10,784 nucleotides of DNA, taken from the NCBI GenBank assembly GCA_037137395.1, contig JBAXKK010000080.1, positions 1 through 10,784 of the forward strand, written 5' to 3'. Positions 3,036-10,784 of this stretch are shown here, piece after piece. Source of the DNA: Elusimicrobiota bacterium. GTDB taxonomy: Bacteria > Elusimicrobiota > Elusimicrobia > Elusimicrobiales > UBA9959. The notes under the pieces were generated by a model. The model was not told where the DNA came from and made no database searches. It saw only the letters and a list, made by a program, of their open reading frames with translations. Position 1 is the first letter of the stretch. The number at the start of each line of letters is the position of its first letter. Position numbers and translations under genes: made by a program.

Positions 3036-3081
3036 GCTTTAGGGGATAATGACTTCCATATCTCGTCTTGGAGGCGGAATG

Positions 3082-4452
3082 ATGCTTAAAATATTGCTAG
3101 CCTGTCTTGCTGTATTTTTTACGATTCGGCCATTCGTATCCGCAACAGATGTGCCAGTTGATTTTGATGGAAAATATTCAAAATCTTCCAACCGAGCCTT
3201 GCAACTATCAGGCATACAAAGACCAACGGCAAAAATAAATGTCAGCCTTCGTTTAGACGACGGAACCATAATACCCATCGAACCCGCAATCGATAAATCC
3301 GGAACCAAGCATTATTCGTTTGTGCCGGGGCGCAATCACGCCAGGATTAACTATACATGCAGCGGCCCTACAGGTCAAACATATACATGGTATCTTCAAG
3401 TAGCGCCCACTTTTAACTTTCCGCAGGATGCCGGGCATAGGCATTCATTGCCGAATATTCTCAACAGTGGCGATTGCAAAAAACACACACAACGCCCATG
3501 TACTCCGGTCCCGCCTGCTTCAGTTGCATATCTTATCAACGGCACTCCCTGGCAACCTGGAGGTTCTATATCGGGAATGATTACGTCCCCGCCACTAAAT
3601 CAAAACTCTGTTTTTACTGTTTACATGGATGATCCCAAGTATGCGACGCAATTAATTACACAAGTGGCATTTAATGGTGCATGCACGATGGCGGAAACCG
3701 CCTCTATGGATATATTAGTGCCAAGCCTGCAGGAATTACCGTTAGATCCCTCTTATGTGCTTGGCGGCAACAATCAATTGCATCCATTCAATCACTATGC
3801 CACCATCAATACCGTAGCGGCAATCTCGGCCTTAGGCAAGCAATGGCGGAAAACGCACGCAAGCGCGAACAAGCTAGTGTTTAATGACATGAGTCTGAAG
3901 TGGGGCGGGCTTTTTGATGTGTTTGGGAACTGGACTGGTTCACACTCAAATCATAGCTTCGGAACAGCGTTAGATTTAAGTAAGAGATGCGTTAAAAAAT
4001 CCAATCGTGCTGCTTTGATAAGACTAATGGACGACCTAGGGTTTACCGTTCAATCCGAAGGAAATACACTTGATGAGCAGAATCATTACCACATACAGTA
4101 TGCCAAGGAGATAACCCGTCTCAGGGGTATTCAGGGCTTTCCCATAACCGCTGATGGGAGAATGGTTGGGATTTCAGAATATGCGGACGAGAGTTACGAG
4201 TCCGATGGCGGAAGTATTGGCCCGGTAACACCTCCCCCACCGATAAAATCGGTTTCTAGTTGTGGCTTAGCCATTAAGGCCTATCCAAATCCTACGTTTA
4301 ACTGTGACACTGGCGTCGATATCAATGGGGTGCCTCTTGCTGGCACAGCTAATACCTACTGCCAATGTATCAACCTTTACGTAAAAAACATGGAGGGGGA
4401 AATTGCCGTTTTAAGGGAACCGGGCGATTCCGAGCCGGCCAATTGCTATTAG
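3082..4452 (+). CDS. Secreted protein with MepA-like (LAS superfamily, M74-like) zinc peptidoglycan endopeptidase domain
   Basis: Signal peptide MLKILLACLAVFFTIRPFVSA. GGAGG at 3070-3074 favours ATG 3082 (or 3079) over 3049. Motifs: NDMSLKWGG, HSNHSFGTALD (Hx6D) and HYH (HxH). The flanks are Cys- and Pro-rich. Confidence 0.75.
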   Translation: MLKILLACLAVFFTIRPFVSATDVPVDFDGKYSKSSNRALQLSGIQRPTAKINVSLRLDDGTIIPIEPAIDKSGTKHYSFVPGRNHARINYTCSGPTGQTYTWYLQVAPTFNFPQDAGHRHSLPNILNSGDCKKHTQRPCTPVPPASVAYLINGTPWQPGGSISGMITSPPLNQNSVFTVYMDDPKYATQLITQVAFNGACTMAETASMDILVPSLQELPLDPSYVLGGNNQLHPFNHYATINTVAAISALGKQWRKTHASANKLVFNDMSLKWGGLFDVFGNWTGSHSNHSFGTALDLSKRCVKKSNRAALIRLMDDLGFTVQSEGNTLDEQNHYHIQYAKEITRLRGIQGFPITADGRMVGISEYADESYESDGGSIGPVTPPPPIKSVSSCGLAIKAYPNPTFNCDTGVDINGVPLAGTANTYCQCINLYVKNMEGEIAVLREPGDSEPANCY

Positions 4453-4471
4453 CGAGATTCCGACAAATACT

Positions 4472-5863
4472 ATGCGAATAATTTCTGCAAAAATATCGAC
4501 CTCTGTGCTGACACTCCTTCTGGTGTCAACTGTTTGTTCTTCGGGACAAAATATCGCCACTAGTTCCGCTTCGGGCGTACACGAAGGAATGATTCCTCAT
4601 GCGTCCGTGGTTGTTTCATCTTCGATTAATCAGCCGCATTTTGAAGCACGAGGCGTTGGAGGTGGAGACGACAGGCCTGAACCGCCGGCATACGAACTTA
4701 AACATGAATACCAGGAAGCTTTGCGCTTAACCAGGGAACAAGAAATGGCGTTGCATGGTTATTTGCCTGATTTTAGAATGTGGGCTATAACGGATTATCC
4801 GGCTGGAATCAAGCACTATCACTTTACAAATAAGCAGCTGCCGTATATCATCAAGGGCGATTTTGATGGAAACGGAAAAGAGGATGTAGCTGTCGCCGGA
4901 CAAACAACGGACCGGAACATGATCTTGGTAATCATGTCCGATACAACAGGCTATTCTATTCTGCCGCTGTGGTCTTATGAAAAATCTGACTTGCAATACG
5001 TTGATATACTTCATTTGTTAAGAAAGGGGACAAAATTCTCTCTTGATGGTGAGGAAATGCCCGGTGAAGAAGAATTGATACAAAATGACGGCATCCTTTA
5101 CTCACAAGATTTTGCCGGTTCAAAGTCTCCTTATGGGTACGATCTTACGGACGCGCACACTATTTTTAGATATCACGAAGGACTTGCCGGCGTGGTCCCC
5201 GTGGAAGTCGGTTCTATAGCTTCGGCTGCCTTCAAGCCTGAATACATAGAGAAGCTGGCTTTAAGCCCTGCTATGTCAAAAGCTGTTCATGCGTACGATA
5301 AGGATTTTGAACCATGGACAGTGCAGGATTATCCGGCTGACATCACTTCGGCGTATCACTATTCCGAAAAATCTCTGCCATACGCTGTGAGAGGGGATTT
5401 TAACGGCGACAAAATCGAAGATATGGTAATTGCCGGATATAATAATGACGGCAACCGGCTTCTTGTAGTCCTATCAAGCGCCACGGACTATACTGTCATT
5501 GAAAGGCGCGACTCAGGGAGTAGACACTGCTACTCGCAAGCCCGAAAACTGGGCAAAAAAATCTCGCACATCCCATCTGATGTTGTAAGGCTATATGCAA
5601 AAGGTCTCCAAATTAATAACACGCCAGGCGTTCCGGGCAGAATGCTGGATACTGAGAGCTTCAGTATTCAAACCATAAAGGGTTGCACAACAGATGTTTA
5701 TGTTCCCGATAAAAATGCTGGGCACTTCAACACCATTTTTGGTGAGTGGCAAATAGTTAAGAGCTCTCAGCCTGGCTTTATTGGATATGACAGGGGCTTT
5801 GAGAAAAAAGATTATTTCAATTTAAGATTGATTAAGCCATATCCAGCGCGAGAGCTACGATAG
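4472..5863 (+). CDS. Secreted protein with two homologous domains, each with an FG-GAP/VCBS-like GDFxGxxxxD motif
   Basis: 463 aa with a signal peptide. Repeats: WAITDYPA...LPYIIKGDFDGNGKEDVAVAG and WTVQDYPA...LPYAVRGDFNGDKIEDMVIAG. Confidence 0.75.
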   Translation: MRIISAKISTSVLTLLLVSTVCSSGQNIATSSASGVHEGMIPHASVVVSSSINQPHFEARGVGGGDDRPEPPAYELKHEYQEALRLTREQEMALHGYLPDFRMWAITDYPAGIKHYHFTNKQLPYIIKGDFDGNGKEDVAVAGQTTDRNMILVIMSDTTGYSILPLWSYEKSDLQYVDILHLLRKGTKFSLDGEEMPGEEELIQNDGILYSQDFAGSKSPYGYDLTDAHTIFRYHEGLAGVVPVEVGSIASAAFKPEYIEKLALSPAMSKAVHAYDKDFEPWTVQDYPADITSAYHYSEKSLPYAVRGDFNGDKIEDMVIAGYNNDGNRLLVVLSSATDYTVIERRDSGSRHCYSQARKLGKKISHIPSDVVRLYAKGLQINNTPGVPGRMLDTESFSIQTIKGCTTDVYVPDKNAGHFNTIFGEWQIVKSSQPGFIGYDRGFEKKDYFNLRLIKPYPARELR

Positions 5864-5869
5864 GTTGCA

Positions 5870-6487
5870 GTGCGTTCTGTAGTATTTGGCGTTTCTATGT
5901 TTTTACACGGCCTGATTATAACGGTTCCATTAATCTTGTATCCGCATTATGCGAATGCGTCCGCGCTGGACATTGAGTCCATGAACAGCCGCGGTTTCGA
6001 TATAAATCCACATGGGTCGGAAAAAACAGTAACCGCCTCCCATGCCTACACCAACCACTACGAAACTAGTGCGACAGTATCCGCTCTTGAAGCACTGGCG
6101 GCTGAATGGAAAAGCGTCGCGCCGGGAGCAGGCCTGCTTAAAATAGGGGACATAAGTCTTCCTTGGGGCGGAACTATGGACCGGAAAGACGATTGGAAAG
6201 CGCAGGGGATGTCGCACGGGTTCGGAATAGAGGCCGACATCGGTAAACCTGGACAGAAACAAACGGAAAACGCCGAACTGATACGGTTAATGTGCGGAGG
6301 CGGGTTCATTGTTCGCAAAGAAATTAACGAGGGGGGAGAACCGCATTCCCATATCATTTATGAAAAAGAGCTGAAGCGTGTGAAAACGCTGAAATGGCCG
6401 GTCGTCGCCTTGGCCGGGGCAAAAGGTGAGATGAATTGCTGCACGGCTCAATCCATCTCTAGGGAATATCAAATCTGCGTAGAATAA
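5870..6487 (+). CDS. Second MepA-like LAS peptidase, paralog of the catalytic domain of 3082..4452
   Basis: N-terminal hydrophobic/signal segment. NHY, GDISLPWGG, SHGFGIEAD (Hx6D) and HSH align with the larger protein. Confidence 0.7.
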   Translation: MRSVVFGVSMFLHGLIITVPLILYPHYANASALDIESMNSRGFDINPHGSEKTVTASHAYTNHYETSATVSALEALAAEWKSVAPGAGLLKIGDISLPWGGTMDRKDDWKAQGMSHGFGIEADIGKPGQKQTENAELIRLMCGGGFIVRKEINEGGEPHSHIIYEKELKRVKTLKWPVVALAGAKGEMNCCTAQSISREYQICVE

Positions 6488-6496
6488 GAGGTAGCT

Positions 6497-6790
6497 ATGG
6501 ATAAGGAATACGTTATAAAGTCTTTAAACATGATCGGTGAAGCCGTCCTTACGCTTGAAAAAGCGAAGGATCGCATTGAGTTTGAAGCGTTACCGATGAT
6601 TGCTCTTGGCTGTAACAATGTGTATTGCCCCAAAGAGACTTGCGGAGCATCAGTTATTGTGGTCCCACCAGGTTGCCAGGGTAAAATTCCAGAGGTTCCA
6701 CCGCCGACCTGCGCATCGGGATATCATCCCCAGCCGACGCCACCAACACCGCCATCACCAGTCCCAGGTGGAGGGGACGGTGGTGATTGA
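6497..6790 (+). CDS. Candidate RiPP precursor peptide (Cys-rich core, Pro-rich tail)
   Basis: 97 aa with GAGG RBS and no signal peptide. A ~38-aa Cys-free leader is followed by Cys at 39, 44, 49, 60 and 72, and 16 Pro in total. It lies two genes upstream of a SPASM radical SAM gene. Confidence 0.6.
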   Translation: MDKEYVIKSLNMIGEAVLTLEKAKDRIEFEALPMIALGCNNVYCPKETCGASVIVVPPGCQGKIPEVPPPTCASGYHPQPTPPTPPSPVPGGGDGGD

Positions 6791-6821
6791 TATACTAAAT
6801 ATCGCACATATGGAGAAAATA

Positions 6822-7577
6822 ATGAAAAAATATCATATTATGCCCTTACTTATATTTGGCACACTACTCGCGCTGAACCCCGGAAATGCGCGATGCAATG
6901 ATCTCCAAGATGCCAAATTAGCAGTTGACGATGACGGTGCCGATTTTGACAAGCAGATAGCTGACACCAGCGAGAAAGTAAAGGAGGCTATGCGTTTGCT
7001 GCGATATAGCAAGTTTTATAAAGACTTGTATGCTTCTATTGACAATGGGCAAATTAAAGAGGCTGAACAGCTTCTGAGCGAGGAATTGAAGAGATCTCCT
7101 GATGCTGAACGCCAAGCGTCATATCTTGCTGCAAAAAGCAAAATTGCTTTTGGGAAAGGAGATTACGCATCAGCCTATGCGGAGGCTGACAAAATTGTAA
7201 TTGGTATGGAGAAATTCTTTGCGCCAAAAAAGCCCTACGAGATTAAGTTTAAGACTCCAAATACCAGAGATGGGGTGCATGGGGCGTATATACTTCGGTA
7301 TCAGGCATCCGCGTATCAACATCATTATGCCGAAGCCTTGGCTGATATCGAACACGCGCTGCAAATTCAATCATCAGCTGATGGGCTTATTGCAAAAATG
7401 GGAGCATTGATGGGACTGAATCGATATGCGGAAGCGGCCAGGGCATGTGAAAAATCCTGCAAGATAGATAAGAGTTTTTTCCTCTCAAGCCCCAATAAAG
7501 CTTATTATCTCCAGGTTTTTAGCGAGCATGGCTATTCCTTAAAGGCCTGCTTGCAAAATAAGTCGGTAAAAAAATGA
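6822..7577 (+). CDS. Secreted tetratricopeptide-repeat-like protein (251 aa)
   Basis: Start moved from 6600 to ATG at 6822: GGAG at 6812-6815, signal peptide MKKYHIMPLLIFGTLLALNPGNA, and no overlap with the precursor. TPR-like helices: GDYASAYAEADKI, HHYAEALADIEHALQI, NRYAEAARACEKSCKID. Confidence 0.75.
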   Translation: MKKYHIMPLLIFGTLLALNPGNARCNDLQDAKLAVDDDGADFDKQIADTSEKVKEAMRLLRYSKFYKDLYASIDNGQIKEAEQLLSEELKRSPDAERQASYLAAKSKIAFGKGDYASAYAEADKIVIGMEKFFAPKKPYEIKFKTPNTRDGVHGAYILRYQASAYQHHYAEALADIEHALQIQSSADGLIAKMGALMGLNRYAEAARACEKSCKIDKSFFLSSPNKAYYLQVFSEHGYSLKACLQNKSVKK

Positions 7578-7601
7578 TTCTGTTCAGAATGAAGCTGCGA
7601 A

Positions 7602-9007
7602 ATGACTGAAAAACACTATGTCAGCCGGTATCTGAACATTATCGACCTCGACGATCCCAAAATAAGTCTATTATTCAATGGGGTGAATGGTTGCATGGAT
7701 GAGATTCCCCGTGAGCTGGGCGATATACTCTCATCACGCGACCATTCGCGCATCGCCAGGCTTTCTCCGGCCAATAGGAAGTTTCTCGCTCAACGCGGGC
7801 ATATTACGACATTCACTCCAGAAGCAGAGATGGCGCGATTTAAAGAGTTCGTCGCCTGCCTACACAATAAAAAAAGCACCAGCTCACCGCCGGTGGAATT
7901 ATTCTGCTTGTAAGCTATAACTGTAATCTTGCCTGTAAATACTGTTATCAGCAGGCTCATCGGCCCGGAAAATCCCATTCTGTAATGAGCGCGAAACTGG
8001 TAGACGACATTTTTGAAAAGTATTTAACCACTTTGTTGCCTACGATCTCTAATCCATGCTTATCCTTGTACGGCGGCGAGCCTTTTTTACCGGGTAATGA
8101 GGCTATAATACGCCGAATGTTGGAACATTCCGGAAGACGCACGGGAATGGCGGTTACCGCCGTTACAAATGGCATCACGGTGGACGCAATGCCGAATGTT
8201 TTTGGTCCTGGTCCGGGCAAGATTGGTAAAGTCCAGATATCTCTTGATGGCGGACGACGTTTTCATGATGGCTCAAGAACAACGACTTCCGGGGATGCCA
8301 CCTTTGACAGGATACTAAAAAACATCCAGCTATTGATTAAGCAGGAAACCTATGTTGATGTCCGCATTAATGTTGACAAGTCAAAGGTGGATAGCCTCCC
8401 GCAATTACTGGAGGAATTAAGGGCAAAGCGCATATTAGATAATAAGTTTGTGCATGTTTACGCATACCCACTGCACGATGGAATAGCAACAGTGGATTCA
8501 ACGGGCTTTATCACTATAGGTGCACTCTCTCGCAAGTTGCGCGAACTCGGCCTTGATGTTCACTGTCCTATCAGTCTGCATGCTAATGATTTCCGGTATC
8601 TTTTCGATCTAAAAGGTGGTGTCGGTCTAATGCGTACCGCATACTGCATGCAGACATACCAACAGTATCTTGTGGTCGATCCTGTCGGCGATCTGTACGC
8701 CTGCTCAGAGGAAGCCGGATACCCTGAATGGCGTGTTGGACATATAGGAGAAGCTGGCGTGGAATTTTTTCCATTGCGTGATTCCTATAAGGCTCGGCAC
8801 TTGGCCAATCTTCCGTCTTGCCTCGCATGCGCGGTTGCGCTTGCCTGCGGAGGACAATGCGGTATGCGGTGTCGTGTCAAGACGGGGGATATGTTTAAAC
8901 CTTATTGCGATGATATAAAAGACGCGATACTTTCGGGTATTAAGCTGGCTTATGAAAACCATAGAGCTATCGGGAAGATGCCTCCAATACCTGCTGCTAA
9001 TGCGTAA
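7602..9007 (+). pseudogene. Radical SAM/SPASM peptide maturase, frameshifted at the A7 run 7869-7875 (468 aa if restored)
   Basis: ORFs 7602..7913 and 7985..9007 join if one A is added: ...LHNKKKHQLTAGGIILLVSYNCNLACKYCYQ... The CxxxCxxC motif at 7922-7945 is in frame with YGGEP, VTNG, QISLDG and the SPASM cysteines (YC...GDLYAC...CLACAVALACGGQC...C...YC). The N-terminal ~90 aa resemble the RRE-like extension of peptide-modifying rSAMs. Confidence 0.85.
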
Positions 9008-9052
9008 GTCGTAACCGCCAATCAATTGAATAAAGTATAACCCTGCGAAACA

Positions 9053-10153
9053 ATGCCCGATAATGTTTACGAGAACCATCTTAAAGGTGAATACGGGATC
9101 GAAAATGGCGAAGAAGCCCTTATTGTTACCCCCGAGTCCTGCTACTATCTGAGCACAGAGACCCGGTGGTTGATCGATAATTTACCAGCGGCGGGTAATA
9201 AGGGGGACTACCTGTCATCACTCACCTCCCTTGGCGTAGAACAGGCCGGGGGAATATTCGACCGACTTATAAATATTAATGTTTTGCGGATCAAGACCAC
9301 AGAAAAATTAATAAGAAAACTAATCGGTCATGTCCTGAAGCCCAAAATAAGACTTATATCTGCAAAATGGCAGGAAAATGTTTTCAGGCCAGTCCAGACC
9401 AAACTATCACAGGTGGCATCTGAAAATATTTTGCCGCTAATTCTCTGCCTTGCCGCCATAGGTTTGGCGTTCGGCCTGTTTATTCCACTAAAGTTTCACG
9501 GCGGACTTGTGCAGCTTTCCGAAGGGCGCTCTCAAGCACTTCTGATATTTGGCCTGGTCCTACTGGGTAGCTTGATACATGAACTGGGGCATTCATTCAC
9601 GGCGGCTATGAGTGGCATAGGATTCCGGCCTATCGGCATATCGATTTATCTATTTTATCCGGTCTTTTATACGAATGTGGCAGGCATTGAAAAGGTATCT
9701 TTCTGGCGTAAAATAGCCATAGACTGTGGTGGATTTGTTTTTCAGACGGCGTTCTTGTGGATTCTTATGGCAACTTGGTTTATAACCAGAAATATTTCTC
9801 TTCTGGAATCCGTACGATGGATGGCGCTAATCATGGCATTCAATCTGAACCCGTTATTGCGCACCGACGCGTACTGGCTGTATCAGGATGTCCGTGCGAC
9901 GGTAGGCAACAAACGGTTGATGGATTTTCTGCATTACGTCTACTCGGCGGCATTTATTATTTTTACATGCTATATTTTTATTTGTATCTGGCACGAATTT
10001 AACTCGATAATAGCCTCTGCTTTGATAATTTGGGCACATCCGCATCGGCTACCGCATGACGGTTACAAAATTATCATAGGGTGCTATCTTGTGCTCATGG
10101 CTTGCATTGGTGGAATTGCTCGGATGAAAGAAGGGCACAAAGAACTATTCTGA
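9053..10153 (+). CDS. M50 (site-2 protease family) membrane zinc metallopeptidase with soluble N-terminal domain
   Basis: HELGH (HExxH) lies within a TM segment, and FNLNPLLRTDAYW is an NxxPxxxxD(G/A) third-ligand motif. There are several TM helices and a ~90-aa soluble N-terminus that may be RRE-like. Confidence 0.8.
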   Translation: MPDNVYENHLKGEYGIENGEEALIVTPESCYYLSTETRWLIDNLPAAGNKGDYLSSLTSLGVEQAGGIFDRLININVLRIKTTEKLIRKLIGHVLKPKIRLISAKWQENVFRPVQTKLSQVASENILPLILCLAAIGLAFGLFIPLKFHGGLVQLSEGRSQALLIFGLVLLGSLIHELGHSFTAAMSGIGFRPIGISIYLFYPVFYTNVAGIEKVSFWRKIAIDCGGFVFQTAFLWILMATWFITRNISLLESVRWMALIMAFNLNPLLRTDAYWLYQDVRATVGNKRLMDFLHYVYSAAFIIFTCYIFICIWHEFNSIIASALIIWAHPHRLPHDGYKIIIGCYLVLMACIGGIARMKEGHKELF

Positions 10154-10262
10154 AATCGCGTTCGTCTCCGTTGTATGGAGAACTTGCCCAATAAATTTGT
10201 CATAATATGACATATAGGAAAGTAATATGGGAGGAAGCACTAATAGAATTTTAAAATTATTC

Positions 10263-10519
10263 GTTGGCTAGATTTGCCAACAATTTGACTTCAACCGGGA
10301 CCTTGCATAAGAGCAGGGAGAGCTTCCAAGTGAAAACTTGGGGCATATATCAGACCGTGTTCGGGGTCGCCAATGTAATCCAGCGCAAGCTGGGTGAAAA
10401 GGCGGCTGTCGTTCCGGGTTACTGATATAGCTCGGGGCTGATTGCCGCCCCATTTTTTGGTGGCAGACTGAATTTGCAGCCCTCTATGGTGAAGTTACGC
10501 CATAAGGGGCTTTTGTTTT
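10263..10519 (+). ncRNA. Unidentified highly structured RNA candidate
   Basis: Dense array of stems, two GNRA tetraloops (GAAA 10332-10335, GCAA 10385-10388), many plus-strand G-U pairs and a terminal terminator. It is a GC-richer island within an AT-rich intergenic region. Confidence 0.55.
10478..10519 (+). terminator. Intrinsic terminator
   Basis: AGCCCTCTATGGTG...CGCCATAAGGGGCT stem followed by TTTGTTTT. Confidence 0.7.
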
Positions 10520-10613: not shown

Positions 10614-10751
10614 ATGGCTACAATACAATTTAAAGGTAAAGAAATTGTTCGCAATCATCATCTCACGGTGCCGTATCACGAACTGCTGCCGGACGAAAAG
10701 AAAAGCTTAACCAAGAAAATCAGCTTAACTGTGTTAACGCCAGTCTTGTAA
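10614..10751 (+). pseudogene. 5' fragment of a type III restriction-modification DNA methyltransferase (Mod), interrupted by an insertion
   Basis: MATIQFKGKEIVRNHHLTVPYHELLPDEKKSLTKKISLT resembles the conserved Mod N-terminus (FKGK...HHLxVP) that normally continues into DNLIIHGDNL. Here the frame runs into unrelated sequence at 10732 and stops at 10751. Confidence 0.7.
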
Positions 10752-10784
10752 TGTACCGGTTTAGTCGGTGTTAAGTGTACCAGC
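10732..10784. mobile_element. Terminal sequence of an IS21-family-like element (continues beyond the window)
   Basis: Begins TGTTAACGCC (5'-TGT end) and has internal repeats ending TGTACC at 10752-10757 and 10776-10781, 24 nt apart. This is the multi-repeat end architecture of IS21 elements, and it starts exactly where Mod similarity ends. No transposase is visible in the window. Confidence 0.6.

Follow-up and report, generated by a model that had tools for sequence, protein, structure and literature searches.

The RNA lying at positions 10263-10519 of the window, by which we mean the whole stretch of 10,784 nucleotides analysed here (contig JBAXKK010000080.1 of an Elusimicrobiota genome, assembly GCA_037137395.1), is, to judge from its homologs, one copy of a multicopy family of leader RNAs of Elusimicrobia. 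The leader is very probably a transcription attenuator of the anti-antiterminator/antiterminator/terminator type, reused before many accessory genes. Covariation across the aligned homologs demonstrates both of its folds as well as a variable 8-bp "code" helix that anchors one of them; the order of events, and the assignment of code pairing to the ON state, are what we infer from equilibrium folding.

A Structured RNA Absent from Rfam

A preliminary description, made from the letters of the window, had proposed an unrecognised multi-stem RNA on the plus strand, and this much stands: region 10263-10519 is a real, uncatalogued, plus-strand structured RNA. Its minimum free energy (MFE) fold reaches -111.9 kcal/mol (z -5.48), as good as in none of 200 shuffles, against z -3.58 for the minus strand. 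No Rfam family comes at or near its gathering threshold: over the whole window, no match overlaps 10263-10519 at E<=5; Rfam 15 run on 361 nt alone returned two sub-threshold matches only (E 4.1 and 5.8); and among the 13 matches obtained from 20 homolog loci, the sole one above threshold is a neighbouring tRNA. Likenesses to c-di-GMP-I/II, c-di-AMP and group I/II intron RNAs or to RNase P, HDV-like and omega-RNA motifs are not backed by Rfam, and the stretch of DNA contains no tRNA or tmRNA. A literature search, confined to freely available main texts, retrieved no description of the motif, and Elusimicrobia go unmentioned in the main text of PMC11109978. Two ORFs covering the core, of 53 codons (plus strand) and 61 codons (minus strand), were rejected as coding on account of frame-breaking indels in the homologs.

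Copies and Distribution

The source genome has one copy. Among 60 relatives, BLAST detected further copies in 4, and the sequences on either side of them are unrelated. A pattern of the conserved flanks, in which the long-range pairing was not encoded, was then run on species-representative genomes; its 29 matches comprise 16 labelled Elusimicrobia, 1 labelled Acidobacteriaceae, and 12 that a profile search classed as non-homologs. All six bases examined for complementarity are complementary in 15 of the 16 Elusimicrobia matches and in 0 of the 12 chance matches. Metagenomes yielded 27 homologs among 28 pattern matches, and viral contigs 1 homolog among 34 loose pattern matches, with 0 matches to two stricter viral patterns; phage and plasmid collections gave no real match. 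The leader was found in 0 of 60 further genomes from the class of the Acidobacteriaceae-labelled carrier and in 0 of 121 genomes from the phylum of a Bacillus genome.

Covariance model R1 detects the leader in 48 of 151 genomes of the phylum, with 37 of 45 in the family that we call f2 and 5 of 60 other genomes in the window's own family; a single genome gives up to 11-15 matches. To judge from genome size and pilin genes, f2 is presumably the gut family. As R1 was built from 43 sequences, mostly non-f2, the f2 copy numbers are lower bounds: the leader occupies at least 5-15 places in each of five f2 genomes, which were chosen for their many matches. The conserved core corresponds to 10287-10458. 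Within f2, a divergent subfamily (L171, L188, and L194) keeps a complementary code pair, but the bases flanking this pair are different. One copy of the leader, on a viral contig (L113, 1460-1643), has an integrase-like ORF and a Rap1a immunity gene in its vicinity.

Two Mutually Exclusive Folds

Covariation in the 71 homologs supports two exclusive folds, whereas the preliminary description had drawn a single nested fold, which combines parts of both and misses the main long-range helix. The features of the leader, all on the plus strand, are as follows:

10263-10281, plus strand: small 5' hairpin, in a subfamily only
10287-10368, plus strand: 5' domain, a three-way junction made of a closing helix (10287-92/10363-68), a helix 10296-98/10355-57, P2, and P3
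10346-10353, plus strand: 8-nt code strand in the junction, which together with 10342-44 anchors the read-through fold
10366-10406, plus strand: antiterminator helix 10366-71/10401-06 around a GCAA hairpin (10379-94)
10401-10458, plus strand: terminator T1, with hairpin 10401-10449, apical stem 10414-21/10428-35, target loop 10422-29, and U-run 10453-58
10443-10465, plus strand: hairpin that could mask the U-run after T1 has opened, found chiefly among non-f2 members
10479-10519, plus strand: second terminator T2 (z -3.55), in a subfamily

In the fold that would stop transcription, the closing helix is paired in 96.0% of cases, helix 10296-98/10355-57 in 97.2%, P2 (10301-18) in 98.8%, and P3 (10322-44) in 90.2%. 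Both hairpins had been noticed from the start: stem 10301-06/10313-18 is compensatory in 6 of 6 pairs, and stem 10326-41 is real and extends to 10322-44. An alternative pairing of 10295-99 with 10431-35 or 10412-17 lost out to 10296-98/10355-57. The 5' domain alone folds at z -3.0, and its closing helix, which is the anti-antiterminator in this scheme, belongs to the MFE structure of 67 of the 71 homologs when the transcript ends at 10372. T1 (-32.2 kcal/mol, z -4.5) is paired at 94.1% in its base and at 96.9% in its apex, with at least 6 U in 8 nt at the U-run in 67 of 71 homologs; the originally proposed stem 10414-21/10428-35 is real and is the top of this longer hairpin. The terminator fold as a whole, loop contact included, is paired in 94.4% of 3258 cells with double changes in 41 of 48 pairs, a level reached by 0 of 500 shuffles and to be compared with 35-45% for slid partners, bearing in mind that the model used to fit alignments A4 and A5 already contained the 5' domain and the apical hairpin.

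The read-through fold is paired at 92.7% and shows double changes in 29 of 34 pairs over the same 71 homologs. It consists of a zipper, 10346-53/10422-29 flanked by 10342-44/10430-32 and 10356-57/10415-16, built around the antiterminator, and RNAalifold predicts this zipper unaided from a 43-sequence MAFFT alignment. Stem 10365-71/10401-07 of the preliminary description is real in the register 10366-71/10401-06 (93.4% paired) and acts as the antiterminator rather than as a stem within a nested domain; double changes occur in 4 of its 6 pairs, few of them independent. The hairpin that it encloses, CCAGC-GCAA-GCUGG, is present as described (77.6% paired, length variable). By contrast, helix 10349-56/10436-42, which was supposed to close the nested domain, is not conserved (221 of 447 cells paired, or 49%), the conserved partner of 10346-53 being 10422-29.

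The antiterminator shares strands with both the closing helix (10366-68) and the base of the terminator (10401-06), and 12 of the 30 positions conserved at 90% or more have two alternative partners each. The two folds are close in energy, with a median difference of 4.6 kcal/mol and the terminator favoured in 49 of 71 homologs. In truncated transcripts, the code helix is part of the MFE of 68 of 71 homologs when the end lies at 10431-37, and the terminator base of 37-43 of 71 at 10450, figures that describe equilibrium MFE and not kinetics. Because MFE folding does not score kissing pseudoknots, the loop may also kiss alongside the terminator; dimer folding of leader fragments on nascent RNA scores no kissing either and is uninformative.

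We picture the following sequence of events. In the nascent RNA, the 5' three-way junction would close first, exposing the 8-nt code strand; as 10401-06 and then 10422-32 emerge, the RNA would zip into the nested read-through fold. The code strand would pair with what would otherwise be the terminator loop, GGC at 10342-44 would capture GCU at 10430-32 of the terminator apex, and 10366-71 would hold the 5' arm of the terminator. Should the zipper not form, or be undone, hairpin 10401-10449 would fold before the U-run and transcription would stop. We read code pairing as antitermination, by parallel with the guanidine-IV riboswitch and the pLS20 zipper attenuator described in the papers cited below.

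Other parts of the region are restricted to some members. Stem 10443-49/10459-65 forms in 31 of 46 non-f2 members, as first proposed, but in only 2 of 23 f2-type ones; hairpin 10263-81 and terminator 10479-10519 are present, as had been seen in the window, and are confined to a subfamily. The 5' arm and loop of T2 (10488-96) are complementary to 10287-96, the strand freed in the read-through fold, so in the window subfamily this freed strand could also pair with T2. Tested against shuffles, the corresponding duplex does better in 10 of 69 members, and T2 or a remnant of it is present in 9 of these 10; that of the window copy, with one wobble, did not pass the shuffle test.

A Strictly Paired Helix with a Fast-Changing Sequence

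Helix 10346-53/10422-29 is the best-kept feature of the leader: it is paired at 98.6% in the 71 homologs, with 8 of 8 pairs compensatory, and its extension 10342-44/10430-32 is paired in 199 of 204 cells. When held-out homologs were collected with a model devoid of this helix, 7-8 of the 8 code pairs proved to be Watson-Crick in 28 of 28. G-U accounts for only 3 of 560 code pairs; the helix extends to 9 bp in some f2 copies (as judged by eye) and is broken in at least two copies, L040 and L072. The only conserved complement of the code lies inside the leader.

What is conserved is the pairing, not the letters, as 58 different code 6-mers are found among 89 copies. In 19 disjoint pairs of close relatives, the code helix shows 56 double changes over 152 pairs and 0 single-sided ones, against 20 of 714 in the other helices, a contrast that is biased because these pairs were selected for their identity in the rest of the leader. 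In a tree from which the compared columns were left out, sisters have different letters at 44% of the variable code sites, with 15% for sites in stems and 42-45% for sites in flanks or loops; a strictly paired helix is, therefore, changing at about the unconstrained rate. Two readings fit this fast paired change, namely selection for new addresses and block exchange. Code avoidance within genomes is not significant, with identical 6-mers in 1 of 87 comparisons within genomes vs. 55 of 3829 across them, a low-power count that leaves out 18 of 107 sequences that the pattern could not parse.

For one low-depth contig from a public DNA run (X7, depth 2.4), no difference from the window is listed in 10002-10347; 13 differences follow in 10348-10427, three compensatory code pairs among them, and its tail is different. 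This looks like recombination inside the leader, with the reservation that it is one contig and might be a chimera. An identical 6-nt code also recurs across subfamilies (L044, L079, L082, and L093), in three cases with the same variant of the terminator apex (L044, L079, and L093), the sequence between the strands being different in L093; either convergence or patchwise exchange would account for this.

The Window Locus

In the window, the RNA is preceded by a membrane metalloprotease gene, whose stop codon is at 10153, and followed by the start of a methyltransferase gene at 10614. Its surroundings include:

10198-10206, plus strand: candidate extended -10 promoter TG-n-CATAAT, kept in the closest homologs
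10230-10234, plus strand: Shine-Dalgarno-like GGAGG with no start codon after it, a possible ribosome-loading or RNA-stabilising site
10614-10729, plus strand: opening 39 codons of a DNA methyltransferase gene, mod, of type III-like character (57.9% identity, E 2e-7)
10730-10784, no strand assigned: end of a repeated IS-like element, which interrupts mod and closes the contig

The sequence common to the closest homologs starts at about 10187, and the extended -10 of these closer relatives lies farther upstream than the -10-like TAGAAT/TAAAAT hexamers (~10244-10257) singled out in the preliminary description. The putative promoter was not picked up by a consensus promoter scan; transcription would start near 10213. 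A GGAGG stands 25-75 nt ahead of the core in 23 of 46 non-f2 members and in 1 of 24 f2-type ones, compared to 18 of 720 background windows. A leader peptide after GGAGG was ruled out, as no start or ORF is conserved among the homologs, and so was a CsrA site, the source genome having no CsrA.

The remainder of mod, along with a res-like helicase, is found on contig C135 of the source genome. Since a second terminator and 95 nt precede this broken gene, the window copy may control nothing now. Identical or related IS-like ends terminate at least 9 contigs of the source genome; the one in the window also recurs in other flanks in public runs, and contigs from two of these (X3 and X4) span the mod/IS-like junction by 31 and 16 letters.

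Other parts of the window deserve mention. The minus strand carries, at 2114-2184, a purine riboswitch of the 2'-dG-II family (RF03165), which passes its threshold with 79.6 bits and lies upstream of a secreted-looking protein without an NCBIfam match. At 2290-2811, on the same strand, a long perfect-looking inverted repeat (2290-2348) adjoins a 151-codon fragment of an IS1380-family transposase. Three secreted-looking ORFs follow at 3049-6487 (plus strand), two of which (3049-4452 and 5870-6487) have similar peptidase-like C-terminal parts; their sole match is a weak one, to a murein endopeptidase. Region 6497-10153 (plus strand) is a RiPP-like cassette including a Cys/Pro-rich 97-aa ORF, a repeat-like 325-aa ORF, a radical SAM/SPASM maturase that is apparently split (7602-7913 and 7985-9007), and an HExxH membrane metalloprotease.

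Genes behind the Leader

In 45 of 71 homologs, an ORF on the same strand begins no more than 60 nt from the end of the motif, and in 65 of 71 no more than 400 nt from it; the count was made on same-strand ORFs only, and a few of the starts are probably miscalled. Among the options first considered, this proximity speaks against a standalone sRNA, while the terminator with its U-run, the conserved alternative fold, and the co-oriented genes bear out the attenuator. The suggested link to type III methyltransferases is incidental, since the gene that follows varies among copies: the 64 downstream proteins comprise 6 pilin-like proteins, 11 glycosyltransferases, 30 without a Pfam family, and a mixed remainder, with ankyrin, receiver, ECF sigma, lipoprotein, methyltransferase, nuclease, and restriction-modification genes. 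Many are surface-related, and no common metabolic theme is apparent.

Wider neighbours were scanned as well, 72 in all (70 of 116 listed ORFs, chosen mainly so as to pass over genes scanned before and probable shadow ORFs, with two rescans in addition). Genes for integrases, primases, toxin-antitoxin systems, HEPN proteins, and restriction enzymes are among them, and no partner gene or transposase recurs among the 72. The idea that the RNA derives from a mobile element, thus, holds as far as the patchy copies in such company are concerned, but no transposase or partner gene travels with them. In L035 (also L089), two tandem leader copies with different codes (2050-2912) flank a 101-aa ORF, which we take to be KaiB-like from its looks and which has no Pfam match; these tandem leaders precede a PilZ-methyltransferase-hydrolase fusion.

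Comparison with Known Regulatory RNAs

Terminator, antiterminator, and anti-antiterminator are the classical elements of known attenuators and riboswitch expression platforms, such as those of the trp and pyr/PyrR types. The logic of our folds is of this already known kind: leader strand 10366-68 belongs to both the closing helix and the antiterminator, strand 10401-06 to both the antiterminator and the terminator, and a U-run is followed directly by a gene. Unlike these systems, the leader has no leader peptide, known aptamer, or protein site; its anchor helix makes use of the terminator loop and is copy-specific, and its genes have no apparent functional theme.

A second comparison is with cATT of plasmid pLS20 (PMC13401043). 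There, an upstream stem-loop is complementary to both the stem and the loop of the terminator and lengthens a long stem, which becomes an antiterminator; the energies of its two folds are similar. In our leader, likewise, upstream sequence complementary to the terminator stem and loop extends a long stem, and the folds are similar in energy. However, cATT occurs as one leader only, that of a conjugation operon, and is located before conAn1 on Gram-positive plasmids, whereas the Elusimicrobia leader has a three-way junction and a variable 8-nt code and is multicopy on chromosomes; it gave no match in the plasmid collection and no conjugation operon or conAn1 context. A trans pairing of RNA as the mode of action of the pLS20 EGeRS elements finds no support in PMC8708921, which gives their mechanism as not known. 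With guanidine-IV, the leader shares an upstream loop that pairs with the terminator loop and opposes the terminator (PMC11611296, in the text available); it differs by its lack of an Rfam match, twice the size, a contact sequence that varies, and the absence of guanidine-exporter (mepA/MATE) genes downstream.

The available text of PMC5320573, PMC4825925, and PMC2864571 describes C4 RNA of phages P1 and P7 (RF01695) as cut by RNase P, with variable loops setting its specificity, and that of PMC4825925 the CI RNA of P4 as processed from its own leader, which it terminates in trans by pairing. We folded P1 C4 RNA from the annotated P1 record for comparison. Both it and our 5' domain are leader-embedded three-way junctions of ~80 nt, built of a closing stem and two hairpins plus a junction strand on the 3' side; this strand is variable and complementary to a hairpin-loop target within the same leader. 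Possible hints of C4-like processing are that the closing helix begins with a G in most members and that GCCA comes after it in 23 of 71, the window copy included. There is no sequence or model match between the leader and C4, isrK, or sRNA-Xcc1, and on the P1 c4 region model R1 reaches no more than 7.3 bits. Unlike C4, the leader has one code instead of two, a target located in an intrinsic terminator loop, and no icd/ant/kil genes; the P2 and P3 loops have no complement above chance in the 71 homologs, and no upstream target of the C4 kind was found, a second target copy being present in 2 of 71. In design, the leader for certain resembles an attenuator; by analogy, it may also work like C4 and CI.

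What Could Set the Switch

The trigger could be a fixed kinetic throttle or coupling to ribosomes, which we consider possible, if short of probable.

It is about as likely, as a tentative proposal by analogy, that the locus regulates itself: leader RNA, freed by termination or by processing, would build up and pair in trans, via the 8-nt code, with new transcripts of its own locus. In a negative version, the released terminator loop would block the nascent code strand, giving a burst of expression after transfer and then silence; in a positive one, the released 5' domain would open the nascent terminator, giving a heritable on/off state for each gene. Such feedback would make sense of a 5' domain laid out like P1 C4 RNA, of a code that is strictly Watson-Crick, changes by double changes only, diverges at the unconstrained rate, and exists in so many versions (58 6-mers in 89 copies), and of downstream genes without an apparent metabolic theme. 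The P4 CI RNA, cut from its own leader and terminating it, offers a precedent in the available text of PMC4825925. Against it, copies in the same genome avoid each other's code no more than chance would have it (at low power), the second code loop and the upstream decoy target of C4 are missing, and a CCA-type end follows the 5' domain in just 23 of 71 homologs; recombination between copies can equally yield fast paired change, and a biased choice of close pairs lies behind the code contrast.

That a host RNA-binding or elongation factor, acting on the 5' domain, sets all the copies at once strikes us as rather unlikely. PyrR-type attenuators are a precedent for such gating, and a scaffold fixed across the phylum with few conserved junction and loop bases would suit a protein. 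However, no partner gene recurs in the 72 neighbours scanned, the source genome has no CsrA, and a shared protein leaves the code differences between copies unexplained.

A riboswitch, in which a metabolite or second messenger would stabilise the pairing of the junction with the terminator loop in the manner of guanidine-IV, is improbable. The topology is indeed that of guanidine-IV, where a kissing loop blocks the terminator (available text of PMC11611296); G10311 in the P2 loop is invariant; and c-di-GMP would suit pilin and glycosyltransferase genes, many downstream genes being surface-related. All 5 genomes surveyed for GGDEF genes, carriers without exception, have them; a c-di-AMP cyclase is found in only 1 of 5 carriers. 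Outside the U-run, the conserved bases that never pair in any fold come down to A10300, G10311, and A10345; so low a number, 3 of 30, speaks against a metabolite aptamer, bearing in mind that paired bases could have tertiary roles. This scarcity, together with the mixed genes, weighs against a metabolite, and the contact sequence is free to vary, with no Rfam riboswitch match.

Lastly, it is very improbable that the RNA is a standalone sRNA gene or a selfish repeat, equipped with a promoter and a terminator of its own and lying in front of genes only by accident: the window subfamily does share its sequence from promoter to T2 between unrelated flanks, and the copies are patchy and numerous, but two exclusive folds are both conserved, same-strand genes follow closely, and the code's only conserved complement is within the leader.

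Significance

The leader adds a phylum-wide regulatory RNA family, absent from Rfam, to a barely cultured phylum, and it precedes the most variable genes, those for pili, surface sugars, and phage defence. Its design is unusual, with almost no conserved pocket and yet a fast-changing, strictly paired address. A leader of ~170 nt lends itself to a test with RNA polymerase alone, locus by locus, of whether the attenuator is gated by its own released RNA, and its many natural codes would provide a ready set of orthogonal transcription switches. We would venture, as a speculation that probably will not hold as it stands, that each copy is an RNA-only, self-addressed switch whose released leader finds the new transcripts of its own locus by a private 8-nt code and decides whether they terminate. 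If so, newly acquired defence genes would be expressed transiently without any protein regulator, many pilin and surface genes would hold independent, heritable on/off states in each cell, and code and gene would be exchanged between loci by recombination inside the leader.
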